DNA of 64,000 nucleotides from Raja brachyura. Taxonomy: Eukaryota. The position numbers were made by a program, and so were the translations under genes. Location: NCBI GenBank assembly GCA_963514005.1, contig OY740806.1, forward strand, positions 15,376,001 through 15,440,000, read 5' to 3'. Numbering within the stretch: the first letter of the stretch is position 1; each line of letters begins with the position of its first letter. The notes beneath the pieces were generated by a model, which was given only the letters and a program-made list of their open reading frames with translations, had not been told where the DNA came from and searched no databases. Below are positions 1-50,687 of the stretch, piece by piece.

Positions 1-125
1 GCTGATCTATCTCTCCCTCCTAACCCCATTTTCCGGCCTTCTCGCCTTAACCTCTGACACCAGTACTAAGAATCGATCTATCTCTGCCTTAAAAATATTC
101 ACTGACTTGGCTCCACAGCCTTCTG
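1..125 (-). mobile_element. CR1-type LINE 3' end fragment
   Basis: gctgatctatctctccctcctaaccccatt is the reverse complement of the CR1-type tail at 580-610. Confidence 0.7.
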
Positions 126-299
126 ATGTCATCCATTGGTCCTAACATAGCACTCTCTGGGATAGATTGTGGAAAGATTTTGCAACAAATCTGGGCATCA
201 TAAGCTACAATTTGCCCTCAGCAGAAGATTCATATTTAACCAAAATCTGTAATCTCAAGGGCCAACATCTCTAAACACTATCATTAGTTATTGGGGAAG

Positions 300-492
300 T
301 TTTGACTGTCTTTACTGGAACTTATCTTGCACTAAGCATTATTCCCTTCGCCCTGTATCTGTACACTGTGGACGGCTCGCTTGTAATCATGTATAGTCTT
401 GATAGCTGACTGGATAGCACGCAACAACAAAAATGTCACTGTACCTCGGTACATGTGACAATAAACAAAACTAAAATTAAACTAAACTGAAC
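300..492 (+). mobile_element. LINE 3' tail (Rex1/Babar-like) ending in (ACTAA)n
   Basis: cactgtacctcggtacatgtgacaataaa followed by an actaa-type tail; related tails at about 13900-13985 (-), 33190-33360 (+) and 61470-61520 (-). Confidence 0.55.
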
Positions 493-544
493 TAGTGCAA
501 AGGCAAGGGAACAACCCTATTTATAGAGGAATTTAGAAGAGTAT

Positions 545-680
545 ACCAGAAGAGGATGTTATGGGGCCAAAGCATGAGAATGGGGTTAGGAGGGAGAGAT
601 AGATCAGCCATGATTGAATGGTGCATAAGCTTGATGGGCCAAATAACCTAATTCTACTCCTATCACTTATGATCTTACGA
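545..680 (+). mobile_element. CR1-type LINE 3' tail
   Basis: gagaatggggttaggagggagagatagatcagccatgattgaatgg...gggcc...ctactcctat, then a cttatga-type tail. Confidence 0.7.
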
Positions 681-1149
681 CGAAGCACCAAGAATACTTG
701 GAAATTAAGCTCCTACCAAGTGAAATCAAGGAGTAGAACAGTATGCCAACTGTATGCATGTTACACAGTGTTGGAGCATGCAATAAACAGAACTACGTAA
801 TCCGACAACCAATGGATCAGATCAAACCTCGGCAACCTTGTCACACTAGATCATGAATTAAATGGACATTTCAACCGCCGATGAAAGTAAGAGGCTCCAT
901 GCAGAAAGCATCCTCAATGTTGCCCAGTACTTCCTTTCTTTTATTTTCTCTCTACATGTGATATCACTAGCAAGGCTGGGATATGATGTCTATCTCTAAT
1001 TGCCACTGAACTGATGAGCCAGTTGAAAGTCAACCACTCCAGTGAAACGTACTAATCATGCTACCTACAGTTACAGACAAATCGTTAATATAAACATGAG
1101 CAAAAATGGACCCAGTACTGAAGATTGTGCTGCACCACATGCTACAGGC

Positions 1150-1580
1150 TACTTGTATTATAAAACAGCTCTCTACCACCACCCTCTGCCTCCCACCTTC
1201 AAGCCAAATTTGTAGACAATTATCTGGGTCATACTGGATGCCATGAGGCATAACCTTCTAGACAAACATGCCATGAGATACTTTGTCAAAAGCCTTGCTA
1301 AAGTATTGATTACCTCTTCAAAAAACTCAATCAAATTGGTGAGATACAATATCCCCACTCACAATGATTATCCCTTATCGTTCCTTGCCTTTCCAAAAGC
1401 ATGTAGACCCTCAGAATCCCCTCCAAACTGATGTAACCGGTCTGTAGTCCACAGGGATTTCCTTGCAGCCTTTCTTAAACAGATGCATGACATTGGGCAT
1501 CATTCAGTCTTCGGACACCTCACCTGTGGCTATCAATGATGGAAATATTCCTGCCAGGGGTTTCACAATTTCATCCCCTG
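1150..1580 (-). mobile_element. CR1-type LINE RT fragment
   Basis: LTNLIEFFEEV and EIVKPLAGIFPSLIATGEVSED are degenerate CR1 ORF2 motifs. Confidence 0.75.
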
Positions 1581-1691
1581 CTTCTGCCGAGGGACCGCGA
1601 GAGGGAGAACAAAGGAGTACCCGGCACAGGGCAACCGCCGAGCAGTAAGGGGGACCACTAGTGGAATGAGTGGGTTTTAAAAAAAAGATTT

Positions 1692-1990
1692 TTAGCGATA
1701 CAGCATGGAAACAGGCCCCACGGCCCACTGTCCATACCGACCAGCGATCGTCGCACATTAACACCACCCCAACACACACTAGGGACAATTTACAAATATA
1801 CCAAGCCAATTAGCCTACAAACCTGTACGTCTTTGGAGTGTGGGAGGAAAGGGAAGATCTTGGAGAAACCCCATGCGGTCACAGGGCGAACATACAAACA
1901 CCGTACAGACAGCGCCCGTAGTCGGGATTGAACCTGGGTCTTTGGCGCTGCAAGCGCTGTGAGGCAGCAACTCTACCGCTGCGCCACCAT
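1692..1990 (-). mobile_element. tRNA-derived SINE (HE1/V-SINE-like)
   Basis: Minus strand: tggtggcgcagcggtagagttgctgcctcacagcgc (A box) ... gacccaggttcaatcccgact (B box) ... central domain and CR1-like tail. Confidence 0.85.
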
Positions 1991-2595
1991 GTTGTCTCAT
2001 GTTAAAAATGGTTTGTGTTAAAATATCGGCGCCCTTTATATGGCAACAATGGATATCACTGTGACATGTGACTAAAGTATCATTCACTCATTCATTCAAA
2101 ATGTCCTAAGATTGATCAGACCCTGAAGATGTATTTAATTTTAAGTTTTTTAAGACCTTCAGTGCCTCTTCTATGTAAAGAGAAGTAGAGATTCATGTGT
2201 ACCTCCAACAACCTGCATCCCCGCTCCTGTAGGCCTCCTCTTTAGACTGTCGGAGTTGTGTGAGGTCTGCAGTAAACCAGGGCTTGTTGTTGTTGAACCA
2301 GATTCTCCAGTGATCTGGCCTGACTGGCTGAGTTACTCCAGCATTTTGGGTCAACTATCAATGTTCTCCAGTGATGCAGACTGACCCGCCGAGAAACTCC
2401 AGCGCTTAGTGTCTTTGAATGGTGGTTGAAGTAGGCTTGGGTCCGAAGAGTTTGTTCCTCTGCCCGTGACTCTGCGGACGGCGAGCTTCCATATGGAGGA
2501 AGTAACTCCAGATGCTGGTGTAAACCGAAGGTAGACACAGAAAAAGCTAGAGTAATTCAGCTGAGTCCGATGAAATAGTCTCGACCCGAAACGAG

Positions 2596-2985
2596 GTCCT
2601 TCTGCAGTTGTACAGAACCTTGTGAGACCACACCTGGAGTATTGTGTGCAGTTTTTTAGTACCCTAATTTGAAGAAGGATATTCTTGCTATTGAGGGAGT
2701 GCAGCGTAGGTTTACAAGGTTGCTGAGAGAATGGAGCAGCTGGGCTTGTATACTCTGGAGTTCAGAAGGATGAGAGGGGATCTTATTGAAACATATAAGA
2801 TTATTAAGGGTTTGGACACACCTAGAGGCAGGAAACATGTTCCCGATGCTGGGGGAGTCCAGAACCAGGAGCCACAGTTTAAGAATAAGGGGTAAGCCAT
2901 TTAGAACGGAGATGAGGAAACACTTTTTCACACAGAGAGTTGTGAGTCTGTGGAATTCTCTGCCTCAGAGGGCAGTGGAGGCAAA
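2596..2985 (+). mobile_element. CR1-type LINE ORF2 3' fragment
   Basis: VRPHLEYCVQF and MFPMLGESRTRSHSLRIRGKPFRTEMRKHFFTQRVVSLWNSLPQRAVEA. Confidence 0.88.
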
Positions 2986-4269
2986 GTGCTGGAGTAAATC
3001 CGCTGATCAGGCAGCTTCTATAAAGAACATGAATAGGTGACATTTGAAGTAGATTGAAGATGGGTCCCGACCTGAAATGTCACCTGTCCATGTTCTCCAG
3101 AGATGCTGTCTGACCCACTGAGTTACTCCAGCACCTTGTGTCCTTTTGTGTAAACAAGCATCTGCATTTCCTTGTTTTGACATTAAGGAAGTCTTACAAA
3201 ATTACACAGAAATCTGACTCCAAGGATTAGAGTGAAAACAGCAGGAGAAATGACCTCTGATTGGGGTCAGTCAGCAGCTGAGCTCCTGGTATGGACATTA
3301 AATCAATGGCAGTGTATTCCATCGTGCTGACTTCCAACTGTAGCTGCTCAGTCAGAATAGTTGCCCATGTTCCATAATTTGACATTCTAGACAGCTCCTT
3401 CAGCTTGTCCGGGCAGGCTATCCACCCAAAACCCTCCGTGGATCATTCAGACCATCTGTGCAACATCAAAGTAAAGGGGAATATTCTTTCAACAGCCAGA
3501 CAGTAGCCACACATTGTAACACAGCACCAGAACATCTACGGACGTGAAATAGGGAAGACATTAGGTTACGTAACTATTCAAATAAATGTTTCAGTTTCAT
3601 ACACGCACACTGTTTATTTTCTGAAGGGTCCCAACCCGAAACGTTGCCCATCCTTTTTCTCTGGAGATGCTGCCTGACCTACTAAGTTACTCCAGCACTT
3701 TATGTCTATATTTGGTAAAAACTCAAATCTGCAGTACACAAACACACTATTTAATGTTGGTGCGCTATACTCAATTCTTAAGACGCAGCAACATTCAAAT
3801 GGACAAGCTGAAATGCCGATCACCCCTTGGTGATGACCCATGCAGGCTGGTGACCCATGCCTTTGCCTACCCCCCACCCCCCCTCCATCCTCCCCAATCT
3901 CTGCACCCCCCACCCTCCCCAAGCCCTTTCAAGTCACTTTAATTTCATGATTCATGTAATTAGTGTTTTTATGGCTGTTGACAGATCAATTTCTCTGCTG
4001 GGATAAATAAAGTTCTATTGCATCGTATTGTATCATGCACCATCACATCTAGTGAATGCTCACAAGGAGGCACCCCTTGAATAACGCATGCAATATGGTC
4101 TCAGCTTAATTAAATCAAGAGTGCATTCTGCGAAGAGACTGATACCTTAGTGACTCTTATTATGTTGGTGCTCAGTTAGTGAGTTTCGAGTCCAAACTGG
4201 TGTGAGGAATGACAGCAGTGGAGGGTGGCTCTTTAACCCCAGGATGGTAAAACATGTTTGGCAATGAAA

Positions 4270-4960
4270 GCACATAGAACATGGAACAGCACAGCACTGG
4301 AACGGGCCCTTCAGCCCATGGTGTCTATACCAACCGTGATGCCATTTTACACTGCACACATGCCTGCACATGTCCGCATCCTTCTATTCCCCCACAGTTC
4401 ACATGCCTGTTGAAATGCTGCTTCAATGTTGCTTCCACCACTTCCCCAGCACCACGTTCCAGATATCGACCACTCTCTCGCACTCAAAGCAAACTTGCCT
4501 CGTAAAGCTTTTTAAAAATGTCTCCCTCTTAAAATTATGCCCTCTAATTGACATTCCCCATCCTGGGAAAATGTCTCTGACCACCTACCCTGTCTATGCC
4601 TCAAACAATCAGTTTGCCTCTCATTCTCTGTTTCTCCAGAGAAAACAATCCAAGTCTTATATCTAATACTCTCTAATTCAGGCAACATTGTGGCAATACT
4701 TGCTGTATCCTCTCCACATCCTTCCTGTAATGAGGCAACCAGAAGAAACATATAATACTTCAAATGTGGCTGACAAAAGTTTTATACAATTGCAACATGA
4801 CTTCCTGACTTTTATACACAACACCCCATCTGATGAAGGTAAATATGTGCTATGGTTTTATTACCCTACCTGCTTGTGTTGCCACTTTTAGGAAGCTATG
4901 GACTTCCACCTCCAAGATCCTTCTATGCATCTATACTCCTGCCGGTCCTATATTTACTGC
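4270..4960 (-). mobile_element. Degenerate CR1-type LINE 3' portion
   Basis: catagaacatggaacagcacagcactggaacgggcccttcagccc tail, then degenerate ORF2 sequence (MLPELESIRYK). Confidence 0.65.
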
Positions 4961-5467
4961 ATACTTTCATTTTACATTTAGTTTCTTTATTGAGATTAGA
5001 TTTTCTTTACATGTTGCAGCACATTCAACCTAGGATCCATGCCAGCTTTCAACACACTAAAATTTATAGCATAATCGTGACTCACCCTCTCTTACTTCCC
5101 TGAGGTCCTGCACGATACAGTATTCTCTCTCACAAGCCTATCAACTCCACTTTGATTCTTTTGCCATCTTCCCACACCTGGAGCAATTTACAGTTACCAT
5201 TTAATATACCACCAAATCTTGAAGAGCTAATGAAAGATAAATGTAAGAAGTCAAGTTTATTCGTCACATATGCATATAAGATATGCAGCGAAATGAAAAG
5301 TGGCCATGCTTGCGGATTGTGCAAAAAAACTACAAAACAGAATGAAACAGAATCAGTAAATACATATTTGTGGGAGAGAAACCCCCCCCCCAAAACTGCA
5401 ATTTTAAAAAGACACCACACAACAGTAAATTGGTACAGTAAGTTAGTCCCTGGTGAGATAGGAGTTT

Positions 5468-7210
5468 AATAATACTAATAATATATTTTATTGTCATTGC
5501 ACATAAGTGCAACGTGATTTGGTTTGCAACTTCCATCCGATGTCATAACTTAAACGACTAATAAATTTAGGTTTAGATACCCCGAGAATATGGTTTGAAA
5601 AAGAACACTAGAACAGTAAAACAGTCAAAACAGACTAAAGTGCAGATGTGTCTGTGCGACGTGACTATCCGATGGAGACAGTCCATGGGGGTGGGGGGCA
5701 CTCAGCAGGGCCGGTTCAGAGCCGCTATAGCTCTGGGAATGAAGATGTTCCTGACTGGAGGTGCGGGCCTAGAAGGCCTTGTAACGTCTGCCGGGAGTAC
5801 TTCGAACAGTCCATTACAAGGGTGAGAGGAGTCTTTATGGATGCTGACGGCTATCCTGAGGCACCGTGTGTGGTAGACGCCCTCCAAGGCTGGTAGCGGT
5901 GTCCCAATAATCTTTTGCGCTCTGTGGACGGTGCACTGAAGAGCTCTCCTCTCTGCCTCTGTGCAGCTGAGATACCACACAGAGATGCCATACGTTAGTA
6001 TGCTCTCTGTCGTGCAGCGGTAGAAGGTTGTCAGCAGCTGTTGGGGCAGACCAGTCCGTTTCAATGTTCTTAAGAAGAACAGTCATTGCTGTGCCTTTTT
6101 GACCAGCGCAGCGGTGTTGGTGGACCATGTGAGGTCCTCTGAGATGTGAGTGCCCAGAAACTTAAAGCTGGACACTCTCTCCACACTGTACCCGTAGATG
6201 GAGATTGGGGCGTATTCCCCATTCTGTGACCTCCTGAAGTCGATAATCAGCTCCTTGGTCTTGGAGGTGTTTCTGCTCTGTATTTTGTTTCATCACCGTT
6301 GGTGATCAGCCCGATCACCGTTGTGTCGTCTGCAAACTTGACAATGGTGTTGGTGTCGAATGCAGGGACACAGTCGTGAGTGAATAGGGAGTAGAGCATG
6401 GGGCTCAGTACACAGCCCTGTGGTGTGCCGGTGCTCAGGGTGATAGTGGAGGACAGGTTCGGCCCCAGTCTCACTGCCTGCGGTCGCTCCGTCAGAAAAA
6501 TCAGGATCCAGTCACATATCGGCGAGCTGAGGCCTAGCTGGTGGAGTTTGGTGGTGAGCTTGGTGGGGATGACCATATTGAAGGCAGAGCTACAGTCAAT
6601 GAAGAGCATCCTCACAGAGGTGCCCTGTCTTTCCAGGTGGGTCAGGACAGTGTGAAGAGCAACAGAGATGGCATCCTCTGTGGATCTATTTGCCCTGTAT
6701 GCAAATTGATGAGAGTCCAATGATGCAGGGATGCTGGATTTGATGTGGGAGAGGACCAGCCTTTCAAAGCACTTCATTGATATTGGAGTTAGGGCAACCG
6801 GGCGGTAATCATTCAGGTTGGTGACTTTAGACTTTTTCGGCACCATGGTAGCTGTCTTCAGGCACTTGGGGACCATTGCCAGAGATAGAGACAGGTTAAA
6901 GATCCTCGTAAATACCTCCGCCAGCTGTACAGCACAGTCCTTTAGTACCCTACCCTGGACTCCATGCGGACCTGCAGCCTTGTGTGGATTGATCCTACGC
7001 AGAGCGCACTGTACCTCCTGGGTACTCAGTGTTAAGGCCTGTCCCTCCGCCATGCCAGGGTTATTCCTCTCCTGGTGGTGCTGCCAGTTTCAAAGCGGGC
7101 AAAGAAGGTGTTTAACTCATTGGCCAGTGTGATATCACTGTGGGGGCAGGCGGGGCTGCTCTTATAGTCAGTGATGTCCCTGACACCCTGCCACATGCTT
7201 CTGGTGTCCA
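5468..7210 (-). mobile_element. Rex1/Babar-type LINE, 5'-truncated, with reverse transcriptase remnant
   Basis: ORF 6247-7053 has [51 protein letters not shown]. Downstream frames give LLTTFYRCTTESILTYGISVWY (Rex1-type C-terminus). Short TAA/TTA-type tail at about 5468. Confidence 0.88.
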
Positions 7211-7249
7211 TGCTTTACAGTCCTAATGGCCTCTGGGAAGAAACTCCTT

Positions 7250-7495
7250 GGCTCGTACGGTAACGGTAGGTACTCAGGAAATCCAGTAAACCCGTGACAT
7301 TTTTTCAACACTGTGAAAAATGTCCATGAGTAAAAAAATACTTGTGATGAAAATAATTGTTATTTTGTACACGTACGAGCCGATACAAGACATCCACGAG
7401 CTCCTACGGACCCGCTACGGACATTCTCCGAGTTTGAATCAGGGGAAAACTCGGGAGAACTCTCGAATTACCTCGTACAGTGGGGCAGGCCCTTA
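7250..7495. mobile_element. One end of a probable PIF/Harbinger-like non-autonomous DNA transposon
   Basis: CpG-rich segment with repeated cgtacg/ctacggac motifs ending ...AGTGGGGCAGGCCC then TTA (Harbinger-type target trinucleotide); the other terminus was not found. Confidence 0.4.
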
Positions 7496-7954
7496 AGTCC
7501 CCACATTTTGGGGTCTCCATTGACCAGAAGTTCAACTAAATCAGCCTTATAAATATCATTGCTGGGTATCCCAGGGCAGGTGCCGGGTATCCTGACAATG
7601 CCTGCCACTTTTAACCATTTACTGGGCAAATCAGAATCACGATGGACTACTCTCACTTGCTGATTCAGTGCAGATCCAGTTACTCCAGATCCAAGGAGTC
7701 TGACATCATCTACGATGAAGAAGGGTCCCAACTGGAACGTCACCCATCCTTTTTTCCCGCATAGATGCTGCCTGCCATGCTGAGTTACTCCAGCACTTTG
7801 TGACTACCTTCTAGGTTAAAGCAGCCTACTTGACTGACACTCTATCCAGCACCGGAAACATTAATTACCTCCACCACCAGTGCAGTGGCTGCAGAGTGAA
7901 CCATTTACAAATGAACGCAGTTACTCACCCAGGCCACTCACTTAAACCTTCTAA

Positions 7955-8226
7955 GTCTGAAGAAGGGTCTTGACCCACAACGTTACCCATTCCTTCTCTC
8001 CAGAGATGCTGCCTGTCCCGCTGAATTACTCCAGCATTTTGCGTCTGGGGTGGGAGATGGCAACCTTCACATGGTTCACCCGGTCTCAACTAATACAATT
8101 ATCCCAACGTGCACAAGCAAGATCAAATAGAACAAGTTGACCTACAACTTTAGGCTGTGCACGCCATATGCAAGAAGAAGATATTATGTCTACCTTTGAT
8201 TTAAACCAGCATCTGCAATTCTTTCC
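7955..8226 (+). mobile_element. Short Penelope-derived insert with a nested unrelated sequence
   Basis: Degenerate hammerhead core at 7957; imperfect ~20-bp TSD cactcacttaaaccttctaa / cactcacttagaccctcctaa. Confidence 0.7.
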
Positions 8227-9334
8227 CACTCACTTAGACCCTCCTAAACCAGCCGTCTCTACCATCAAGAAGGATAAGGGCAACAGGTGCTTAGGAACAC
8301 CAACGCAGAAGAGAGCCTTCTGCCCACTATGTGCATGATGAACATTGAACAAGTTTAACTAATTTGCTCTGCCTACACATAATCCATATAAGTAGTGGGC
8401 AATAACGTGATGCCCGGATCCTGAAAAAAAATTCTTATCTTTCTTCTCTGCCCTTTGTATTCATTGGTCATTCAATTAGAATATGTAATTAGAACATATA
8501 GACATATATATTAGGGTACCTTGTGTTAGTTTGCTATGATTAAAGAATGCAATCCAGCTATGTCAATTAAAACCAGTGAACTACAATGAGAAGATGTTCA
8601 AACTAATATTTTTGAATATATGCCATGTTTAATGTTTTTGACTTATTCATGTAACCCCTCTGGCAATGTAAATCAACATAACTACAGTCATTACTTGCTG
8701 TACCTGCATGTTTTCTGTGTAGTGAACCAGCACATCATTTTTTGCAATAACCTATGGTATTCCTAACATTTAAAAATGATATAAATTAAATCATATCAAA
8801 TATGCAATATGAAAATGTCTCTTGTCCTCCTACCATTGAATAATCCCAAATTCTCCCATGTTGTAATCCATCTGCCAGCTTGTTGTTCTTTCTTTCAACC
8901 TGGCACTGCAGAAATTACAGAGAGCGAGGCTGAAATAATAGCAGAAACTATTGTAAGTACTTGGAAGATCAAGCAACAGCTCGGGACACAAGGAACTACA
9001 GGTTGGAATCTTGAGCAAAACACAAAATGATGGAGAAACTCAGCAGGTCAGGCAGCAACTGTGGAGGGAATTGGACATGTGATGTTTCAGGTCAGGACCC
9101 TTCTTCAGAGAGGCGACAAGCAACAACTGAGGAAAGAGAAGCCTGGTTAAGCATCTGTGATAGCTGAGAGCCCAGTACTGATCCATATGAGACCCAATGC
9201 AAGAATTGGATTCATGAGTTGTAATTTAGAGTCTTTCTACACAGGTGAATGTAACCGAATTGAGTGTCCTTCTTTATTCATCATTGTCCTGTAATGTATT
9301 TTATGCCACGTGCAGTGGAAGGCATCGTGGTCAT

Positions 9335-10400
9335 AAAGTCATGAGTTATACAACATAGAAAGAGGCCATTTGTCCCAACATTTTGTCCTATCTATTCTAT
9401 TCCCATTGCCTGCATTAATTCCATATGCATTTCTCCATGAGCATTGCTCATTCAAGTAGGTATTCAGATGCCTCTTAAAGGTTGTTACAGTTCCTCCACC
9501 ATCATCTCCTCGGGCAGTTCATTCCAGAATCCTATCCCGCTTTTGTGAAAAAGAATTACACATCAAACATTCATTGAACTTTCTCCTTCTGACCTTAAAT
9601 GTATGCCCTTTAGTTTTGGACACCTGTCACTGTAAACAGACACAACCCATTTACCTGTCTATGCCACTCACATATACCTCTAACCTATCACTTCTCAGCC
9701 AGTTTTGCTCCAGGGAAAATACATCCAGCCTATCCATTCTCTCCTTATAACTTAGGTAAATCAATCGAGGCAACATCCTTATTTTGTGTGAACCTCCTCT
9801 AGAATATTCACACCGTTCCTTCAGAGTGGTGACCAAAACTAGATGCACAACTCCAAATGTGGGCTAACCAATATTCTGCACCATTATAAACACGACATCC
9901 CAACTTTTCTTCGTAATGCTTTGGACAATGAAGACAAGCACACTATACACCTTTAAAAAAAGACACAAAATGTTGGTGTAACTCAGCGGGTCAGGCATCA
10001 TCTTTGGAGGTGACATTTCAGGGCTGAATCCATTACACACATTCTTTACCTTTCTGCCCACGTGTTGCCACTTTCAAAGAACTATGCAGTGTACCCAAGT
10101 TATCTCAGTTCAACGACATGCCCCTGGACCCTGCAATTTATTATGTATGTCCAGCCCTACTCTAAGTTGTCAAAGTGCACTTCATAGTTGCCCAAGTTAA
10201 TATTCCATCAGCCATTCCCTTGTTCAATTTCCCAGTTGACCTAGCTCTTGTAGTAACCTGAGACACCAATCTTCAGTCCATTCTACTGCCAATGTTGTGG
10301 TCATCTGCAAACACACTAATCATGCCACCTACATTCTTATCTGAATCATTAATACATGACAAAGAACAGACCAACCCTCGGGTATACCGCTTGTCAGGCC
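9335..10400 (-). mobile_element. Degenerate CR1-type LINE 3' portion
   Basis: RMLPRLIYLSYKERMDRLDVFSLEQ in ORF 9651-9848; gtcatctgcaaa near 10300 is the reverse complement of FADD codons. Confidence 0.75.
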
Positions 10401-11299
10401 ACTAATCTGAAACGCAGTTTCACTTTGAAAATAACAAGTAAAATTCTAGGTGAAAAAAATCATATCATAATTTTTATTTCCGTAGTGGTTAGTACATTTC
10501 TAGCAACATTTTGGAGCTGGTATTATGGGAATTAAGAACTAATCATAGTTCCATGTTGAATGGAGCAAGATCCATGCTGTTGAACATCTTTATAGATTTC
10601 CACTGAATTGCAGGAATTGATGCAGGGCTAAACAAAGGAATAAAGTAGAGACACAATTCTAAAGACACTATGTCTAAAATCTAAAGTCTATGCTCAGTGC
10701 GTCCAACACCTGCAATGCTAGCAAAGGGATGGTCAACAATTTGGATCAAGACCATGAATCAGGACTGAGTGAGTAGAGAGAGTAAAAATGAGAGGAAGGA
10801 GTGAAGCAAGGACTGGTAGGTGATAGATGGAACCAGATAAGGTGGGAAGATGGAGGGTACACAAAATGCTGGAGAAACTCAGCAGGTGCAGCAGCATCTA
10901 TGGAGGATGTGTGGGAAGGTGGGAAGATGATAGGCTGATGGAGTCAGCTGGGGTGAGTGGTAGTGAAGGTAGTGACAGAATGAAAAGCAAACTGCTATGG
11001 AGCCAAAGTGTGTGGCTGATGTTTGAGTTGAGATCCTGCGTCAGTCCTGTTCACACAACGCATGAACATTTGCTGTTTGACCCATTGAGTTCCAGAGGTT
11101 TTTTTTTTTGCTCCACATTATATCATCTGCAGTTTCTTGTATCTCCAAGGTAAAGATGCAGAGTGTAATCAGGTAAGGGAGAGGTGATGGGCAGATGGAA
11201 TCAAGTAGGTGTGGTTGACAGATCTTGATAATGGTAGGGGTGATTGGTAAAAGTCAACAAAGTGAGAGACAATCTGGGTGGATCAGGAGGAATGGAAGA

Positions 11300-11620
11300 G
11301 GATCAAAGAAGGGTATGGGTTCCCTGACAGTGAAAATGTTAACGTCCATACCATAGGATTACAACCCTACTGGAATATGAGTTGTCATCTACTTTGCACA
11401 TGGCCTCATCCTGGCAGTGAAGGCAGAGGATGGACAGGTGACTGTGAGAATGGGAAGGAAAGCTGAAATGTCATGCAACTGGAAGCTCAAGGTGGCTGTT
11501 ATGGTGCTCTCCAAAACCGTCGTCTAGACTACGCTTAGTCTCACTGATGTACAGGTATACATTGTGAACACGGAATGCAACAGCCAAGGTCGGAGGAGGT
11601 GCCCGTGAATCTCTACCCCA
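11300..11620 (-). mobile_element. Old, degenerate Penelope-like GIY-YIG fragment
   Basis: Minus-strand translation YLYISETKRSLDDGFGEH...LPVA resembles YIGETKRRLGDRFAEH...LPVA of the younger copies. Confidence 0.65.
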
Positions 11621-12028
11621 CTGAGCAGGACTGTTTAGGTAACTTGATGGTCGTGAGAGAGGAGGTGTACATCCCACGGGTTCCTGAGGAAGTAAGAGCA
11701 GGAGGAATTAATAGACCAGGGAGAGCAACACCAAAAGTGGAGAGGAGGGGCAAAGACTGGAGAAAAGATAACTGGAGGTGGGATACCAAACACACCTCTA
11801 ATAGATATATTTAAGTCAAACAAAAGGTTAATAAATTACATGGACTGTGAAGTTCAACACTTTTTGGGGACAAGTTCTTCTTTAAAGGATTATTAGCCAT
11901 AAGCTCCTCTTTGTCCCATGATCCTCAAGTTGACATGACTAACGCTATAGTTGTTTGGGGAAAGAGGTCCCCTCCATTTATGTATGGCCAAAATAGTATA
12001 TCCAATGGAACAAATATAAACTCAACAC

Positions 12029-12409
12029 GAAGATAGACATAAAAAGCAGGAGTAACTCAGCGGGATAGGCAGCATCTCTGGGGAGAAGGAATGGGTGACG
12101 TTTCGGGTCAAGACACTTCTTCAGACAGATTATGGATAAGGGAAACGAGAGATATAGATGGTGATGTGGAGAGATAAAGAACAATGAATGAAAGATATGT
12201 GAAAAAGTAACAATGATAAAGGAAACAGACCATTGTCTGAAGAAGGGTCTCGACCCAAAACATTGCCTTTTTCCTTTGCTCTATAGATGCTGCCTCACCC
12301 GCTGAGTTTTTCCAGCATTTTTGTCTACCAGGCCATTGTAAATTGTTTGTAGGGTGAAGGTGAGGAGCTAGTGTGAATTGGGAGAGGGGGGAGGGATAGA
12401 GAGAGAAGG
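12029..12409. mobile_element. Self-inverted Penelope-derived insert
   Basis: Minus core at 12097-12124 and plus core at 12237; TSD aactcaacac (12019-12028 / 12410-12419). Confidence 0.78.
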
Positions 12410-12565
12410 AACTCAACACAGTCTCTTTAGAATGACTGATAATACAACTGCTTCTAATACTATAACACTGCTGTAATGTTATTCCCAGACGGTTCAGTGA
12501 GCAAGGAATGTAGTTGTGTTGGCTCCATCAGTATAGGGGTAACAGCCCCATGTTGAGTCTGCTGT

Positions 12566-12575
12566 CCCACAATGC
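12566..12575 (+). promoter_or_regulatory. ZNF143/Staf-like motif CCCACAATGC (copy 1)
   Basis: Matches the ZNF143 SBS core CCCAYAATGC; just upstream of the first YY1-type motif. Confidence 0.5.
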
Positions 12576-12594
12576 AGCGGGTGGAAGTCACCGG

Positions 12595-13243
12595 CGCCAT
12601 CTTTGAAGGGGGCATCAGCTTCGACCCATATGACCTGCTATCATACAATCTAAAGTACGTAAATCTATGTTTTCAAATTGCATACAGTTCTGAGGCGTGG
12701 CGGGGTAACGTTGCTGATTAAGATGTTTCGGGTTCGCGCGATTCTATTTCGGAATTGCTGATAAATCAGAGAAACGTCTAATCACCTCGAATTAAGCGGA
12801 TTCACTCTGGCTGCTGCCGCCATCTTTGTTTGGGGCACCGGGCCCCCGCAGGGTCTCGGAGACAAACCCGGGGCTCACACGCGTTCCTGTCAGACACGGC
12901 TTCGGAATGTTGTCGATGTTTGTGTCGTTTTAAAGCGCGTTAGCCGAAGTTTGCGTGAATTTACAGGCAGTAATGAAGTGAATGACAAATCGAGGCCGCC
13001 ATCTTTATGCGGGGCGCGATTGCTTCCTCAGCGCTCCGCCGGGTGCAACCTCGCGAATCCCGTTCTACTGTCGCAGGAAGCTTTCAGCGGCCTGACGCTA
13101 CTCTATGAAAGACTTTGGGCCAGTTTCTGTACCTAAACCGCCCGTCAGTCCAATTAAATGAGAGCGCTCGCCATTTTTCAAAGGGGCGCGGGAGGACTGA
13201 CGGCCCCACAATGCTCGCCGAGCCGCCATCTTTGTGCGGGGCA
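12595..13243 (+). promoter_or_regulatory. Cluster of five YY1-type composite motifs CGCCATYTT-N5-GGGGCR
   Basis: Copies start at 12595, 12818, 12997, 13169 and 13224; same strand, identical 5-nt spacer length. CGCCATNTT is the established YY1 core. Confidence 0.8.
13205..13214 (+). promoter_or_regulatory. ZNF143/Staf-like motif CCCACAATGC (copy 2)
   Basis: Identical 10-mer just upstream of the fifth YY1-type motif. Confidence 0.5.
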
Positions 13244-13453
13244 CGGGGCCCTGCTGGCGGAATGGCCGCGGCTCTGCGTTTAAATTGGAGTTTGCGGGTC
13301 GGGATGAAGTAATTGAAGCGTCTGCCGGGCGTTATTTTGTAGCTGTCGGGTGCTAAGGGCTGTGGTATTTGTCCCAGGAGGAGGGGGCTGCAGGGTTTGC
13401 CCCTCTGCATCCCACAGTTCCCGGGGCGAGTGCACGGATGTAGACGGTGGACG

Positions 13454-13825
13454 ATGGCGGCGCCCAGGGCAGCGGACTCCCCGAGTCGGAGCTGGCCGAG
13501 CGCGGCGGCCGATGCCTCGCTCCAAATCGTCGCTCCCACCTGGACAGAAGTGGCGGGCGACCCTGCCAGCGAGCCTCCCACCCCCAGCTGGAGCAGCGCG
13601 GCGGTGGAGAACCCGGCCCCCAGCCCGAGCCGGCCGCCCGCCTGCCGCGGCATCTCCTGGACCCCGGCCGAGACCAACGCGCTGATCGCAGTGTGGGGCG
13701 ACGAGCGGCTGCAGGACGTGCTGGAGGGCAACCTGCGCAACTCGCACATCTTCGACAGGATCTCGCAGGCCCTGCGGGAAATGGGCTACGAGAGAAGCGC
13801 TAACCAGTGCAAGGAGAGGATAAAG
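13454..13825 (+). CDS. MSANTD2: MSANTD2-like coding exon 1 (Myb/SANT-like trihelix domain, N-terminal part)
   Basis: ATG at 13454 (acgATGG, good Kozak) gives MAAP...[24 protein letters not shown]...[14 protein letters not shown], matching the recalled vertebrate MSANTD2 motif [20 protein letters not shown]...QCRERIK. Ends at donor AAG|gtagcc, phase 0; 372 nt; lies in a CpG island. Confidence 0.93.
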
Positions 13826-15756
13826 GTAGCCGAGACTCCTGGCGAGTAAACTAACTGTAACCAATAACCGGGGTCTTGCAGGCACCGTCTCCATGGTTCA
13901 ATGGTACTTTATTGCAGCAGATACAGTGAAAAACGTTGTTTTGCATGTAATCCTGTAAAATCATACCATGCATAAGTACAATCGAACAGGAGTGCGACAT
14001 TGTATGTAGTGCAGTTGGGACTATGTAAATTGGGCACTCTACCGTTTCCAATAGCCCAAACCAACTAATCTGTGTGGTAACTCGTGTTATGTAATTAACT
14101 TGCCATCCATATCATGTTTCCCATCTCTTATTGATTCAATTTAGGCATTTCTAAGCCCCCTTTTTCCCGTACTACTTGTGAATGGTTTCTGTTGTTTTTG
14201 ATATGGAACTGGTACTAAGTGAAGTTGGGCACAAAATTAACCAATTTTCCATTCACACAATAGTTACAGGAGATCTTCGAGGCCTTGCTAACTCTATGTA
14301 AGAGCAATTCGGGTTGACCCATTGCCTGTCCTCTCCTTTAGCCCTGCAAATTAATTCCCTAGAAATACCTATTCAGCTTCCATATGAAAACTACAATTGA
14401 ATTTGCTTAATCCACTATACATTCCAGACTCCAACCATTCTGTTTTCAAAATACAATCACAGGATCATATTTTGATAGTAGGGTTCAATGACGATGTTAC
14501 CTTGTTGGGTAATTTCAGAGGCTAGTCAACTAATTGGATCTAGTGTCGTTGTCAGACTAGAGGTATTTCTACCTTGAGAAAGTTGCTGAACGTAGTTTCA
14601 AGTTTTCCATACTATATCTATTTCTTCCATATCTGTTTCAATCACTTGTATTTAAAATTCCTTTCTGACTTAATAGAGCACAAACATGTTTCTGAATCAC
14701 TGGTGCACATAATTGATGACACCTTACTTACAGTTATCTGAACTTACAGCAGCCTCAATCTATGATCCCACGTTCATAAATGTCAAAAGCTTGTCACGGT
14801 CTATCTACCCATCCTCTGAGTCCTATAGTTTTGTCACAAGCAACATTTTAAACCGTTACCTTTTTGCATGATGATTTCTAATTCCTAAGTTGAAAATCAG
14901 AAACTTTTGCTTATTCCCCACAGTTAGGCTGGATATTAGTTTCATTGTTCCTGTCTTATCATTCAATCTCCAGGTGGGTACATTCCTTTTTTACAAACTA
15001 AGATTGGAATGGGGCTGAGTTTGGAGTTGAAAGAAGAAAATCCATCTTCCTTGGGACAAAAGTAAAGACAATAATGTCTGTCCTTCAAAGGCTGATTTAT
15101 TTTTCAACCTATATTTAATATTTGTAGTTCAGTTGACATTGGTGATTAGCATTAAGTTTTTTCCCCCCCTGGATTGTGTCCAGGTCTTGAGTGATTCTCA
15201 TGTCTGTCTCTAGAACTGACTGCAGTATTCCAGGCGTGGTTTGTGTTGTCTTGTGCCACAGATGAAAGTCATGTTCCAAGTTGTGTTCAACTGTTTCACC
15301 TATAAGGTTGCCATATTATTCTGTTTGTATAATGCCATGCTACAGTTTGGCAAATTTTCTTCAGCTTTAGTTCAGTTGGTTTGATATAATTCATGTGGGA
15401 TATTATATTCTAATGGCATCTTAAAACTTGGTTATAATTTAATCTGCCCAGTTATATTTTATATCAGTAGTTATAACTTTTAGTTCAGGAGTATTTACTT
15501 CTGTTTTACATATCTTTATATAATTTACAATTTTAAGCAGCCTTTTTCTTTCACATCTAAGGTTGTAAGTTCAAGAACACACCCCCAGGGACACAGATTG
15601 GCCAAGGGTAGTTTAAATGCCATGTATCTTTTCTGGTTATAAAAACCGGTGACACGTTGGGCACTTGAGTCTTTGAACCATTGCAACTAGATGTCACATC
15701 CTTTGGTTGTTAAAATAAGACCTATTCCATAAATTTAAGCAGATAATCTGGGTAAA

Positions 15757-23497: not shown

Positions 23498-23846
23498 ACT
23501 CTAAAGAGGTGCTATAGCCGAGTGAAGGAACGAGGTCGTGGTAAGAGAACCTGTAACTATACGTTTCAACAGCTGGAGCAGGTCTTTGGACGCGTGCCTG
23601 TCGTGTGGGAACCACACGCCTATCAGCCTGTCCTTATTGACAGCAGTGGACTCTACCAGGACACAAAACCTGTCACAATTAATCTGGAAGAAAGCCGGGA
23701 AGCTCAACCAACAGAGTTGGAAGATTGCAGAAACGAAAAACCAGATTTGCACATCAAGCAGGAGGTGCTTATGAATCCGAGGCAGGAGCTGCAGGCCTAC
23801 CAGAGGCAGGATCTCGCTGTGTACCAGGACGCAGATGAGGATGTAG
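23498..23846 (+). CDS. MSANTD2: MSANTD2-like coding exon 2
   Basis: Acceptor ttttcattcctatacag|ACT. Encodes [31 protein letters not shown]...QPVLIDSSGLYQ (recalled human [31 protein letters not shown]...QPVLINSSGLYQ). Donor GTAG|gtgagc, phase 1; 349 nt. Confidence 0.93.
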
Positions 23847-25722: not shown

Positions 25723-28700
25723 CCAACATCTCCACTAGTTGCAGCCAGTCTCCATTCAGTAGTTGTCACTTTTCCTGTTATGGCATCATGCTGACATATC
25801 TTGGTGTAATGTTTTTGTCTGCTCTTTGATTGTCCATGCCAGTTCATCCAGTAAAAGCTAGTGCAGTATGGCATTAGCATAATGTTTCTTCTTGTGCTCT
25901 TAATGTTTCCACACATCCACCTTCACTGCCCCCTACTTTCCTGTTCTTCCACCTAAATCCCACTCCACACCAATACATTAGCCGAGATAATTTAGGATGA
26001 TTGTAGTACTCCTACACTTCAGTTGCTTGAACTTGGCTTGGATGATGTTTTTGATGGGAATTAAGATAATCTGACAGTACAAAAATTCTTGAATTTCATT
26101 TAGCTATGGGCCATAGTCAAGTCATTTATTAAATTGGTGACATTTAATGTGATAAAAGATGGAACTTTCAAATTTTAAATAAAATAATTTTCTTCTAGTT
26201 TTTGAGTCTTCCGTATCTGGCCGGTCACCAACCAATCCTTCCCCAACCCTAACGAGAAATGGGTACTGTTTTTATGCACCCAAATGTTGTGGTTTTTCAA
26301 ACATGTGAGAATGTTGCCACGTTTCAGTGGATTGTCGAAAACACTAGTTTTATTTCTTATGTAGGGAATTTAAAAAGCAATAACTCCAGTAAGATCTCAG
26401 ACCTACTTAAACGAAAGTTGTCAATCCCAATGAGGCCTGCCTCTATGGACACTTTTTTTCAAATGTGACTATAGCAGGGCGGCATTGCTGATATATATTG
26501 GTGCTAGTCTTACAGGATCATAAGTTCTAGGAGCATAATTGGGCCATTCGGCCCATCAAGCCATTTATTCATGGCTGATCTATCTTTCCCTTTCAACCCA
26601 ATTCTCCTACCTTTGCCCCATAACCCCTGATACCCTTGCTGATCTAGTCTTGTTACAAAGTTGCTTTACCGTTGCTTTTTAAGAGAAAATTCTGTGCATT
26701 AACTGTGCAATTCAAGAACCACCCAAATCAATCGTACTTTTTTTTTCACAGCCAAAGTGTTTTAAATTAAGTATTTAAGTCAAAATTTGTCTGTGAATAG
26801 TTTCTAAGACATGGATCCATTTGGATGAAAACTTAGCAAAGTACCCTTTATTCCAAAAAAAAACAGTATTGGACCCGCATAGTACTTTTGTGGGTGATTG
26901 ACATGGTCACAATGTTGGCATGCGTTTTAGTCCAGAAGTAATATCCTCCATTGCCTTTTAAACCCTGCAACATCACATTACTGGTTTATTTTAATATTAA
27001 AACTTTCATTTGAATTTTAGGTGGATTATATGACCCAAACCTCTTTTTCTCACTTAATACTTGCGTGTGTGCGTGTGCTTCATTTCAAATTAAATAAAAA
27101 TGGTAACTGCAATTTAAAGAAAAATCATGTAAAATCTGAAGGAAAAGCATTTTCGATGACAAGTTTAGAATAAAGGCTAAAGTTCTACTGTGATCACTTT
27201 CTGAATTTCAAATTAAAATTCTCCAGGAATAAAACTCTGGAAATGAGCAGGATATGTTGCAGTATATTTTGAACCACCAATGAATGCGAGTCAGCATGTA
27301 TTGCTAACCTCTAATTCTCCCTTAGCTTGCCAGGCCGTTTCAGATAACAGTTAAAAGCCAACCACTGTGTCCAGAGTCAATTAATGATCCCTCGGGGTAG
27401 GTAAAGATAACTATTCTCCTATCCCGAGGGTTATGATGTGAAACAGGCATCGTTTTATGATAGTCCAGTGTGTTTCATGGTCAGCTGATACTGGTACAAC
27501 CTTCTTTGTTTCTAGAGCTGCCTTGGAGTAATTGAATTTGTTTCCAGATCAATAGTCCAGTGTCATGCTACCATGTCTATAATGTCACCTTTTATAATAT
27601 CTTGTATTTTGCAGTATCCTTTATCATAATAAAGTGTCGCAAAAGACCCTGACCGGAGTGTCATGTTGCATTTGACATTGAGCGATAACATTTTTATTAG
27701 GATTTTAGAGATTTACCTTAATGTCAACCTTAAAATTCAACTTTACAGGAAGGATGAGAAAAAAAAAAACGTTGAAAGGCATGAAGAAGAAATTCCAGAC
27801 TGGTTCCTTGGATTGAGAAGTTGAATGTGAAACTTTAAACCCATTGGCTGTATAAGATTTTCTATACTAAAGACCACTGCGATGCCAAATATCCTCGTTA
27901 TACCACCCAATGGGTGGTTTATGTTTTAACTGTATGGAATTTACTTCTTATGGATATTTCATGAGTCTGTGGATTAGTTGTTGATATTCTCAAAGATTTT
28001 GTCTTGTATTTTCTGATGCAAGGCAATACCTCTGTCAGGATGTGTGCGCCTCTCCTGTTTTCCCTTCATTGTCTCACTAAAAGGATACCACAGTTTCAAA
28101 AACTGCTTTTATTGCTGATAACTACTCCTACCCAATTTGCTGAAATCGGTAATAATTCCTACCATTTCAGCAGGGTATGTCAACTAATTGTATGTTTCCA
28201 CACCTTGCTAGCACAGAATAAGCAAAACAAGCCCAAAGCGGTAGACGCTGAACAAGCGGATCATATATTTACGACTCTACAATTTCCTGCACTTCATAAG
28301 GGAGATTCTGTTTTGCTTTGGGGCAAAGATTATGTGCATGTGTAGCAGACCTATTAAGTTGCTAGGCAGGCTTTGATTCAATGATGAATATTTCCTTATC
28401 AGCCAAATGAAAAGAATGATAATATAATTGGAGCATTGAAAGTATGGAACGATTCTTAACTAATTTGCACATATGTTGTATCAACTTGCAGAAAATTGCA
28501 CCTGAACAGTCCCTGTTGCCATTCAGTTCTTGCCTTGTTCAAACACAATTGTGGTTCAGAGGCAGCCCTGTTTGATGACTTGATGAGGCTTCTACTTGTT
28601 GGCAGATTCTGAAAGCTCTGCACAACCATATTATTAAATACTTGCTTTGGAAAGCCACTATAACAATGTGAAACTGAAGGGCATCGGAGGCAGTGATATG

Positions 28701-29889
28701 TCCTTGTTTATGATGTAGGATTATATTTAGTAGATCATTCTCTCTCAGATGTTTCCTTAAGGTTTTATTGAAACAAAGTAAGTGATACAAATCTGTCGAG
28801 CAACTAATGAACTGAGATATTTGAGGAAGAGTAGTTAATAGCCAGCTGTTTGTAATATGTTTTTAAAATACTCTTAATATTGTTTTAATTATTTTGGGAG
28901 ATATTCTAAGGGAGGAGAAGCTGTACAATCTTTGTGAGCATTCTCTAAATGCTGCTGAAAGCGCCAGAGAAATCATTCCTTATGGTTGCTCCCTGATAAC
29001 TGTCACTGGTAAAATTAATATTGCATTTCTACACCTGCGAAGGCTGTAATGCACCAGTTTAATTCAGCCAGTGCTTTACCTGTGAATTGTTAGTCGGCAG
29101 TTTTTTCTCGCCTTAATGGAGGCTTTGTAGCTAGAAAGGTGTGTTGGTCTGAATTCAATATCAGGTTAAATCTGCTTGGCAGTAGAATATATTGAATTCA
29201 GAAATTAGAGAACTGGCTCAGAAAGCAGTCTGATCCATTTGGAATTTCCTCTTAAAAAATATTCTATTCTAAGCGGAGGTGTCGGCAGTTTAACTTGAGC
29301 CAAAGTATAATCCAGGAGTACGGCTCCATTTGTTCCAGCTACTCTGACCCTCGTCAACTTCTTTCTTGATCTATTCCTCTTCTATTGTATGCAGTCACGT
29401 CTTGGGTTCAATAATTTGTCAGTTGGCGTTATACCAAGCCTTAAATATAGAAGCTAAATTAAGTTTTCACCTCCAGTAAAATTATTTGGTGGATATGGGC
29501 AGCTGCTTTTTTTTAATAGGAGGAATTCTTGTTGAATGTTGCAGATTTTGCTGCTTTATTGGCATAAAGAGATCTGATTTTTCTCCCGACAAGAAAAATT
29601 GTTTGTAATTGATCGATTATCTTCTTGGGAACATGGGGTGCTGTTTGTGTGCACAAGATCTGTATCTTTGCTAATTCAACAATCTCACTGTCAACTAGTT
29701 AATAATTATCCTCCACCCCCTGAACAGCCTCGCAGGAACCCAGCAAGAGGTGTTGGATTTTATGAAGCGTATCCATTTTGATATCTATAATTGCATTAAT
29801 CAACTGGTCTGCAGCATTTCCACGGGCAAAAATAATATTTTGAGTTTCATAGTTGAAGCTTGCCAAAAAAGGTAAGTAAAAACACTTGT

Positions 29890-31889: not shown

Positions 31890-32160
31890 TGTGGGATGCC
31901 TGAGCATAGCATATTCAATGTACACACCTTTGGGTTGCAGACTGCCGGGACTAATTCTTCAAGATTGAATGTTGAATCATCATGTCAGTGGAGAAAGCCA
32001 AGAGCGGGCAGATTGGTGTGGGAATTGAAAAGAGACGTAAAATTATATACAACAGTATTGCAGACAGAGTATCGGGGCTACGTGAAATGATTGCCTAGTC
32101 TATACTTAGTCTTGTCGGTGTTAAAGAAGCCTTATGTTAAACACTGAATGTAATAGACAT
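31890..32160 (-). mobile_element. Degenerate Penelope-like GIY-YIG fragment (duplicate at about 40108-40378)
   Basis: Nucleotide similarity to the reverse complement of 20650-20940 (atattcaatgtacacacctttgggttgcagactgcc; gattgcctagtctatacttagtc). Confidence 0.5.
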
Positions 32161-47796: not shown

Positions 47797-47857
47797 AAGA
47801 AATGAATTTTGTAAAGAAGAAGCCAGAAGCACGGCATGATTCCACAGAAAATATGCA
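47797..47857 (+). CDS. MSANTD2: MSANTD2-like coding exon 3 (61 nt; not in ORF track)
   Basis: Strong acceptor tcttatttttctttag|AA and donor CA|gtaagt. 61 nt exactly bridges phase 1 (exon 2) to phase 2 (exon 4), giving (E)EMNFVKKKPEARHDSTENM(Q), the same 21-residue length as the recalled human segment [21 protein letters not shown]. Confidence 0.85.
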
Positions 47858-48794
47858 GTAAGTCACCTTTCTCAATTTTATACGTAAAATTCCTTGCAGG
47901 ATACTGCAGTGGATTTGAAACCACTGTCTGCGAGAATGTCAAATTAATTACATCATTCCCAGGTGTGCAATTGAGTTTTATTTTAAGTGTCTGGTTCGAT
48001 TGCTGATCTGTATTGCAGGGCACTATTCACATGATTACATTCACAGCTGCTGAAGCTCCTTGTCTTGCTGCTGTTAAACGCTGAAACAGTGAAGGTTGGT
48101 AACACTCCCCAATGCTAACCCAGGTGTGAAGAGGATCTCGCTTAAAATTTAGCACGTTGAATGGGATTTGTTGGTTAAGGGTGCCATTTAAGTACATTCC
48201 TGCAAACAGTCAACCAAGAATGAATGAGGGCAGAGGCAGCAGTGACAGTGGCAGGTATATTTGATCTCTGGGATCTCCCATTGCATTTTCTGTTGGTTTG
48301 GCATTTTTGGTTTCCTTTTTAAATAATACAATTCCACAGCTTTATGGAACGCGTTTCACACTGCTCCATATCTAAAATGACACAATCTAGAGTATCATCC
48401 TACTCCGATTAAATAAAGATGAGATTATTTATTGGTCTAAAATTGGTGGCAAAATATACTTCCTGTGGACTGTGAAAATTCTTTTGGTTGTCCAGCTTTG
48501 CTAGGCCTGATAACCTGATGTATCAGAGATACAATGTGTAGCTAAAACTTCTGAAGTCCAGACCCAAACCCCAGGCTGCTCAATCCTGTTTGTACATATT
48601 CACTGATTGCTGGATAAATTCCATTGGCCCAAACGTTGGGTGATGTAATCCTTGGTCAAAGGAATCCTAAATGGTAAGCGCAACAATAGCAATATGGAAA
48701 TGTAAATACTTCATATAAACGCAGTTGTTTACATGCCACATACTAAGTTTTGATAAAGACAAAAATGTTTGCCACTTTAGTTTTTTAGGGACCG

Positions 48795-49022: not shown

Positions 49023-49819
49023 TGGTCTCAATATTTAGCCTAAATGAATAATTTGTGAAGAATTGGGGTTGATCGAGCCTGGCCAATTTCATTCATCCTT
49101 ATCAGCAAGTTCCTTCCACCACCCTTCCCTGCCCCCCACAGTTGGAGCATTCATTCCACTTCTCCCTTTGCTGAGGAGCCATTCCATTCATACACTGATG
49201 TGACTATTTCTGATTTAATATTGAACAATAATCATAGTCACTCATTGAGCTTTGTCACCTGCTCCATGAGCAAACATCATCTTCTTGAAGCCATCTAGTG
49301 AGGAACAACTGTAATGACTGCTGAAGTAATGGGAAATCTGGTTGTTGGAACACTGATACTGCCACTATGCCTTAACAAGTGATAACCGATGTCAAAGTAA
49401 TGCCTTGACTGGTGAAATATATCCCCTCTCTAATTACATCGGAATTTTCAAAATACATTCAGCTATTTCTCTAAATTTTACAACCTATATAAGTTCTCCA
49501 TGGAGAACTGGATTGGTAATTGGGAGACACAAATTTAAGATAATTTCCAAAAAGAGATGATTTAAAGAATGAAGATATTTACATTCAATGTTGCTATGAT
49601 CTGGACTGTCCTGCTTGATTAGTTTTGGTAGAGTTTTTTTTCGTAGGGAACTGCATGCAGAAAGAAAAATTTGCAGGAATATAATTGATATTAAGTGGAA
49701 CCACTTGGCATGATTTACCAAATGACATGCCTTCTTGCCTCTCTTTAATTCTTTGCATGTTGCAGCCTGCATGCAGTTTATACACTTTTCTGACTTTCCA
49801 CTATTTGTTTTTTTTCTAG

Positions 49820-50687
49820 GAAGCCAGAGATTCTGCAGGCTCTCATGGCACTATTAGACTTGGTTCAGCCGAGGTGGCAGGATTTCCAAAGTTACGACGA
49901 CCTCAGCAGTACGTACTTCGCAAATAAACTTGGTATCTTCGCCATTGGTTATAATACGAGATGGGTAGAGGACATACGATACCATTATACAGAAATCAGC
50001 TCCCAAGTGCCGGTTGGAAAGAGACTGAAGGACTATTTAAGTCCAGAAAAGCCAGAAGGCAAATTGATATCTGCTAAGCGTCAGAAAATGAACTGGAAGA
50101 AAGTTTATTATAAGGTTTTTGAGATCACGAAAAGCGAGGCGCGTTGTCTCGAGCTGCACTTTGCTTTTGAATGGATACCCATCGCACTTTCCCGAGCAGC
50201 CAATGACAACACTGTACAATATCTGCTTCCGGGCGGGATCCCGGATACCAACGGCCTCTATGTCATTGGCTGCGAAGAGGCAGAGAGTGAGGTTTTCTCC
50301 CCTCAGCGAGATTACGGGATTAGGGTGTTGCCGAGGGTTTCCCTGCAGCACGATTCCGGCAGCACTACTGCAGGACCATCGCTTTTGGAGAACGATCTTA
50401 ACCAAGGCAGTGCGATTAAGTCAAAAGTCCGCTACTGTTATCTCGGTGTGGCAGAGGAGAAAACCATTTGTCAGTGCATACTGCAACACTTTCAACCACC
50501 TGTCAAGATGCTGGCCGTGGAGACATGTACCATCAACAGCTTCCTTTCTGAAAACTGCCAACCAGGAGCCATCTCCAGATCTATTTACATCAAATTTATA
50601 GAAGTAGAAAAAGAGTATCTCTCTTCAGGCTGCTTGCAAGAGTGTTTGGAAAAAGCCATGGGGTATTCGTTACGGTTCACAAAGTAA
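49820..50687 (+). CDS. MSANTD2: MSANTD2-like coding exon 4 (C-terminal domain, stop TAA)
   Basis: Acceptor tttgttttttttctag|G. KPEILQALMALLDLVQPRWQDFQS...IGYNTRWVEDIRYHYTEISSQVPVGKRLKDY...SEARCLELH...SIYIKFIEVEKEYLSSGCLQECLEKAMGYSLRFTK*, closely matching the recalled MSANTD2 C-terminal half; 868 nt. Confidence 0.95.

Follow-up and report, generated by a model that had tools for sequence, protein, structure and literature searches.

What reads a set of five identically oriented composite sites lying upstream of a single gene in the skate Raja brachyura? We analyzed a window of 64,000 nucleotides (contig OY740806.1; positions count from the first letter of this window). An initial annotation had described five pairs of a YY1 core and a GGGGCR half-site in the MSANTD2 promoter. 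It had assigned the second half to a factor that cooperates with YY1, possibly MSANTD2 itself or another Myb/SANT protein acting in a feedback loop. We characterized the gene, the sites and their flanks, compared the sites with published binding motifs and with related organisms, and weighed the possible readers against each other.

The MSANTD2 gene and its promoter

The gene is MSANTD2, in agreement with the initial annotation. Coding exon 1 (13454..13825, plus strand, ATG at 13454) encodes a Myb/SANT-like domain (Pfam Myb_DNA-bind_4, E = 1e-14) and is followed by a GT donor at 13826; two contigs from related organisms join it to position 23498. Exon 2 (23498..23845, 3' end approximate), exon 3 (47799..47858, approximate) and the last coding exon (49818..50687, 5' end approximate) follow on the plus strand. 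The four coding exons were positioned by tblastn with the MSANTD2 protein of Amblyraja radiata. The best matches of the last exon among 211 proteins are all named MSANTD2, with 95% identity to A. radiata, 94% to Rhinoraja longicauda, 81–87% to other sharks and rays and ~52% to bony vertebrates. By eye, the Myb/SANT domain of cartilaginous-fish MSANTD2 (encoded here by 13454-13825) is shorter than that of primates, which has a short additional segment between the first helices.

A CpG island (12701..13900) holds copies 2–5 of the composite and exon 1; copy 1 sits on the CpG-rich 5' margin. Placed relative to the ATG at 13454, the copies sit 230–859 nt upstream, within or edging the island, a CpG-island promoter location like that of the published THAP1–YY1 motif. 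No divergent coding gene was detected in 1-12500 by a Pfam search of 44 frames of at least 70 amino acids, a search that short exons would escape. The Pfam matches in these frames were a reverse transcriptase, an adjoining ALKBH8_N fragment and one sub-threshold match. The reverse-transcriptase frame (RVT_1, E = 1e-25) belongs to a broken LINE remnant at 5702-7089 on the minus strand.

Two further repeats were seen in the window. A 276-nt stretch at 15759-16034 matches its own reverse complement at 86% and probably consists of a short interspersed repeat present twice in opposite orientations. Intron 2 of MSANTD2 contains an 8,218-base head-to-tail duplication (28003-36221 and 36221-44439; 100% identity, gapless) that carries no coding exon; the assembly is probably in error here, or else the duplication is very recent.

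Five composite sites with a fixed internal distance

The coordinates of the five composites, their single-strand orientation and their start-to-start spacings of 223, 179, 172 and 55 nt were all confirmed. Copy 1 (12595..12614, plus strand, as are all the others) is an exact match and pairs a YY1-type core with a GGGGCA half. It is followed by copy 2 (12818..12837), by copy 3 (12997..13016), which has a GGGGCG half, by copy 4 (13169..13188), with a CCATTTT core and a GGGGCG half, and by copy 5 (13224..13243), 230 nt 5' of the ATG. From the five copies we refined the motif to CGCCATYTTT-N4-GGGGCR, with 14 invariant columns. A spacer of fixed length and variable sequence had been described; the fixed length stood, but the variable gap is 4 nt, since all five copies have T in column 10. 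In column 21, four of the five have C. ATGs on the minus strand within the motifs open frames of only 6–46 codons.

We searched the whole 64-kb window for CGCCATNTT-N5-GGGGCR and obtained five matches, all on the plus strand; none of 100 shuffles of the whole window matched. The word CGCCATNTT occurs six times in the window, and five of the six are the composite copies. The cluster is sharply bounded, because the window holds five exact composites and no further one with 1–3 mismatches. A look-alike at 12523-12542, just 5' of copy 1, has five mismatches and a G run shifted by one; it is probably a chance match, given 53 such matches in the window.

Local composition does not account for the cluster. 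In 5000 dinucleotide shuffles of 12500-13450, composites occurred 0.0002 times on average (maximum 1) and YY1 cores 0.047 times (maximum 2). As a guard against post-hoc motif picking, we made ~200,000 random draws of five sites from the island, skipping overlapping draws; no draw shared an invariant run of ≥ 5 nt in 60 columns. The internal distance is equally specific. With spacers of 0–15 on both strands of the promoter, only a CCAT-to-GGGC offset of 13 nt gave five matches, and the one other spacer with two matches reflects a second GGGC in copies 2 and 5.

The flanks had been called unrelated, which was borne out for most pairs of copies (14–43% ungapped identity, the background level) but not for copies 2 and 5. 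These two are identical at 27 of 30 nt and share a second GGGCCC, 7 nt past the first GGGC (12840..12845 and 13246..13251, plus strand), possibly an extra half-site after copy 2. The view that the array is no tandem repeat holds: none overlaps the region, and head-to-tail units with similar flanks were not found.

The initial annotation had also noted that the first three spacings are near nucleosome repeat length. We do not retain this point: the 223- and 55-nt gaps misfit, and four gaps over 630 nt average 157 anyway. The 55-nt gap also changes by 2 and 4 nt in the two relatives described below. In human cells, YY1 sites were reported to lie in nucleosome-depleted DNA (Wang 2012, PMC3431495, from the accessible text).

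The composite matches a published THAP1–YY1 motif

The left half of every copy is a good YY1-type core, as had been proposed, and the question is what reads the right half. THAP1 is a dystonia gene that is present in cartilaginous fish; its product recognizes a GGCA core and acts together with YY1, a partnership that is documented. We therefore compared the copies with motifs derived from THAP1 ChIP data, which, like the other literature below, are cited from the accessible portions of each source. A gapped motif with a 'GGGC' half, UA4, was reported in THAP1 K562 ChIP data (Wang 2012, PMC3431495), and the first THAP1 motif of Kheradpour & Kellis 2014 (PMC3950668) consists of YY1 plus an apparently HNF4-like part. 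The supplement of Lu 2017 (PMC5389469) gives a THAP1 matrix derived from the 200 top-ranking peaks in K562. This matrix is ~24–25 columns long, against 11–13 for YY1's own matrices, and its nine readable columns are AGCCGCCAT, that is, it starts with nGCCGCCAT.

The skate copies follow this motif in both halves. CGCCAT stands in the register of the matrix in all five copies, as judged over its first nine columns, and all five carry the GGGC half-site. Scored on these nine columns, the copies reach 5.8–9.4 bits and rank 1, 2, 3, 6 and 9 of 3184 local 9-mers, with copy 5 scoring highest and copy 4 lowest of the five. Ranks 4 and 5 are YY1-like cores on the minus strand, at 13450-13462 (over the start codon) and 13262-13270, without a GGGC half in register. 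The likeness to the K562 motif thus covers a YY1-type GCCGCCAT core at the 5' end, a GGGC half, a length of ~24 nt and a promoter location, and the comparison extends over the 5' nine columns of the matrix. The skate promoter differs in having five oriented copies.

A second comparison was made with the 24-nt THAP1 site of the human RRM1 promoter, TGCTACCATGTTTTGTGTGGGCAA, the best match of the Lu 2017 matrix in the RRM1 fragment, which scores 14.86 bits against a mean of 9.8 bits per site (Cayrol 2007, reproduced in the Lu 2017 supplement). Binding of THAP1 to the RRM1 fragment was shown by EMSA, competition and ChIP. The site and the skate copies have in common CCAT-N-TTT-N5-GGGC-A with an identical CCAT-to-GGGC offset of 13 nt, found in all five copies and in this one printed reference site. 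In register, the RRM1 site agrees with 11 of the 14 columns that are invariant in the skate, and copy 2 is identical to it at 16 of 24 positions. When the 3' half was slid, there were 4 of 5 matches in register and 3 of 5 at a one-base shift, a control blunted by the G run. The differences are that the RRM1 fragment, 50 nt as printed, contains a single high-scoring site, that TA precedes CCAT where the skate copies have CG, and that the RRM1 site has the T of the THAP1 consensus, which is absent from four of the five skate copies.

The strict in-vitro consensus, TNNNGGCA (Ramage), is present only in copy 2 (12830-12837), so that copies 1, 3, 4 and 5 are not strict THAP1-binding sequences; the GGCA core is found in three of the five. 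The main evidence for the predicted THAP1–YY1 reading is the geometric match to the independently derived RRM1 site. We consider each copy to be probably a THAP1–YY1 composite promoter element. A second factor at GGGGCR, at a fixed distance from YY1, is most likely, given the THAP1 ChIP motif and the RRM1 geometry; its predicted identity is most likely THAP1 rather than MSANTD2 or another Myb/SANT protein, since the composite matches the THAP1 motif instead. A feedback loop becomes unnecessary, because the THAP1 motif and the RRM1 geometry explain the composite.

The same does not demonstrably hold for the human gene. We take human MSANTD2 to lie near 124.8 Mb on chromosome 11, inside an interval without THAP1 peaks in K562 cells, as none falls between chr11:123,062,925 and 124,876,276. 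The K562 THAP1 peak list (Ramage supplement) has no MSANTD2 row. Because there is no K562 THAP1 peak, regulation of MSANTD2 is not demonstrably common to human and skate.

How THAP1 and YY1 would act on the array

YY1 would contact the CGCCATYTT half through its zinc fingers, and THAP1 the GGGC(A/G) half through its THAP domain. At an offset of 13 nt, or about 1.2 helical turns, YY1 and THAP1 would fit next to each other on the DNA, and the fixed offset may reflect a direct ternary complex. THAP1 would stabilize YY1, and HCFC1 would be recruited. Five same-strand copies, presumably occupied by skate THAP1 and YY1, would provide high, redundant occupancy and a steady, housekeeping-type output of the MSANTD2 promoter. 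We infer that the effect of the array would be activation and that five copies would make it robust.

The mechanism is taken from the THAP1–YY1–HCFC1 module described at Shld1, Ech1, Cuedc2, Prepl and PSMB5, which is mostly activating. In mouse neural stem cells, YY1 binding fell by >90% at three THAP1 targets when THAP1 was absent, and YY1 co-binds 80.9% of THAP1 target promoters (Yellajoshyula preprint). Shld1 is maintained by THAP1, YY1 and HCF1 jointly (Shinoda preprint). THAP1 mainly activates its direct targets, the promoters of which are enriched for both motifs (Ramage), and a YY1 supershift on a THAP1-site probe was mentioned as data not shown (Aguilo). The majority of THAP1-bound genes did not respond to THAP1 loss (Ramage; Shinoda preprint). 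The module and the skate array differ in two respects: in their accessible text, the papers on the module treat the THAP1-binding sequence and co-occupancy and not fixed spacing, and human MSANTD2 is absent from the K562 THAP1 peaks.

Comparison with related organisms

None of the 21 runs listed for related organisms is recorded as RNA. Four of them (X10, X15, X16 and X17) were compared with the skate sequence; no contig was obtained for X10, though this does not prove absence. A single X15 contig (organism E) covers 12400-13900 and shows 72 substitutions and 4 gaps. The X17 contig (organism G) covers 12816-13825, where it differs by 71 substitutions and 5 gap bases, and the X16 contig covers 13325-13825 with no differences. 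None of the seven indels listed for these relatives falls inside a motif. Four of the seven lie between copies 4 and 5, where the 55-nt gap is shortened by 2 nt in organism E and by 4 nt in organism G. The 179- and 172-nt gaps have no indel in either relative, at a divergence too small to test constraint on spacing. The second GGGC after copy 2 is altered at 12840 and 12845 in organism E, and the spacing of the one after copy 5 is one base shorter in organism G.

The 40 itemized differences, out of 130, all belong to organism E and lie at 12442-12978, where the list was assumed to be complete for this organism; copies 3–5 lie outside this stretch. None of the 40 substitutions falls in copies 1 and 2; the base following copy 1 (12615) reads A in organism E. 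The 141 nt that follow copy 2 hold 23 of the 40. By chance, both copies would be free of substitutions with P = 0.051 for the two 20-mers and P = 0.095 for the fixed positions only, so this is a weak test and the pattern is only suggestive of motif conservation. Substitution density against organism E is 16% in 12838-12978 and 3–5% in the 5' flanking stretches.

The X16 and X17 contigs both depart from the compared region after 13825, where the first 30 nt of exon 2 (23498) come next. Because they join 13825 to exon 2, they derive from spliced RNA or from a retrocopy. Transcripts that include copies 2–5 may thus exist, since the organism G contig covers them. The 5' ends of the contigs, 13325 for X16 and ~12800 for X17, are hints only, as contigs cannot show a transcription start. 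There are 11 upstream ATGs in 12790-13453, all of which open short frames, and only one of them comes after 13325; this distribution makes a main transcription start near 13.3 kb the likelier one. The ~650 nt 5' of the ATG in the organism G contig would represent either a long leader rich in upstream frames or merged overlapping transcripts.

Alternative readers of the array

The reading that best survives beside THAP1 with YY1 keeps the geometry and replaces THAP1 by a different reader of GGGC, either another THAP paralogue or an SP/KLF-type factor. In its favor, the T that the THAP1 consensus has upstream is missing from four of the five copies, and two copies have GGGCG at their end. THAP domains are highly similar, the family has expanded by lineage (32 genes in zebrafish, according to the accessible part of a review), and an SP motif also occurs in THAP1 peaks (Lu 2017, accessible part). 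Against this, the two halves stand exactly as far apart as in a THAP1 site and in the register of the THAP1-derived matrix. An SP/KLF reader is further disfavored by the invariant block, which is GGGGC followed by R and not the longer GGGGCGGGG, the sequence of the GC box. We regard a different GGGC reader as unlikely, though it is the first alternative to keep in mind.

In a second reading, the repeats are bound by MSANTD2, a domesticated Harbinger Myb-like protein, either singly or together with YY1, and the protein thereby controls its own gene. The feedback idea is more than a guess, because MSANTD2 is a domesticated Harbinger gene and its ancestor binds transposon ends: the product of the Harbinger Myb-like gene binds transposon terminal repeats (PMC9392472; Sinzelle 2008, cited therein). 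The likeness to that system lies in the ancestry and in repeated, oriented sites at a 5' end, and within the 64 kb the copies occur only at the 5' end of MSANTD2. The skate locus differs in having no terminal repeats. Among nine short inverted pairs in 12300-13900, none is a terminal-repeat-like pair bracketing the copies, although ancient ends may have decayed. The domestication dates to ~500 Mya, and the DNA-binding section of that source gives no MSANTD2 site (PMC9392472, accessible part). The THAP1–YY1 motif, moreover, covers both halves and their spacing. Self-binding by MSANTD2 is accordingly quite improbable in our estimation, and we give just as little credence to the variant in which MSANTD2 reads the array beside THAP1, or competes with it for the GGGC half, and so closes a feedback loop through the YY1 composite. 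If MSANTD2 did read its own promoter, this would be the first MSANTD2 DNA target found in the literature searched, and two transposon-derived DNA-binding families, THAP and Harbinger Myb, would be linked at one site.

A third reading needs YY1 alone, with five strong YY1 sites and the 3' G run as a flank preference. The good core in every copy fits, and CCATCTTGggC forms the end of one YY1 consensus published from ChIP data (X-TFBS preprint, accessible text). The comparison with such an extended YY1 motif agrees in the CCATCTT core but not in the position of GGGC, which directly adjoins CCATCTT in that consensus and does not stand 13 nt from CCAT. YY1's own matrices, as far as they are accessible, span only ~11–13 columns, and GGGGC is invariant in all five copies past a variable 4-nt gap. 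There is thus very little to recommend YY1 as the sole reader.

The array could also have been left behind by local duplication or by gene conversion, most of its copies being dispensable by now. Copies 2 and 5, identical at 27 of 30 nt, look like such a pair, and the orientation on a single strand is how duplication leaves copies. The flanks of the other pairs are at background while 14 columns are invariant across a variable gap, and there are no half-decayed copies at 1–3 mismatches. Duplication may account for how copies 2 and 5 arose, but not for why the pattern has survived; for the array as a whole we consider it no better a candidate than YY1 alone. Finally, an RNA-level element, either a hairpin or a protein-binding site within a long 5' leader, is scarcely credible. 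In its favor, the spliced organism G contig covers copies 2–5, and two copies have complementary ends, CGCC and GGCG. Against it, the five 30-mers fold like shuffles (z from -0.95 to 0.38) and have no common structure, there is no Rfam match, and copy 1 lies upstream of both spliced contigs. The whole of 12800-13460 gave z = -2.0 against 20 shuffles.

Novelty and implications

The class of composite to which we assign the skate sites is already known from human ChIP data, and no new mechanism is proposed. New here are the five same-direction copies in one promoter, an unusually dense example. We found no report of a five-copy array, of the motif in cartilaginous fish or of THAP1 control of MSANTD2, though subscription papers or closed supplements could hold one. 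The papers that name both THAP1 and MSANTD2 apparently do so in gene lists, judging by their listings, and in the accessible parts of the THAP1 and YY1 papers we found no structure or spacing test of the pair.

If the THAP1–YY1 reading is true, a spacing rule for this pair is common to skates and humans and would date to the root of the jawed vertebrates. The five natural variants, with their different gaps and with or without the T of the THAP1 consensus, form a ready probe set for THAP1–YY1 spacing. The target genes would differ between the two lineages, with five copies at skate MSANTD2 and no K562 peak at human MSANTD2.
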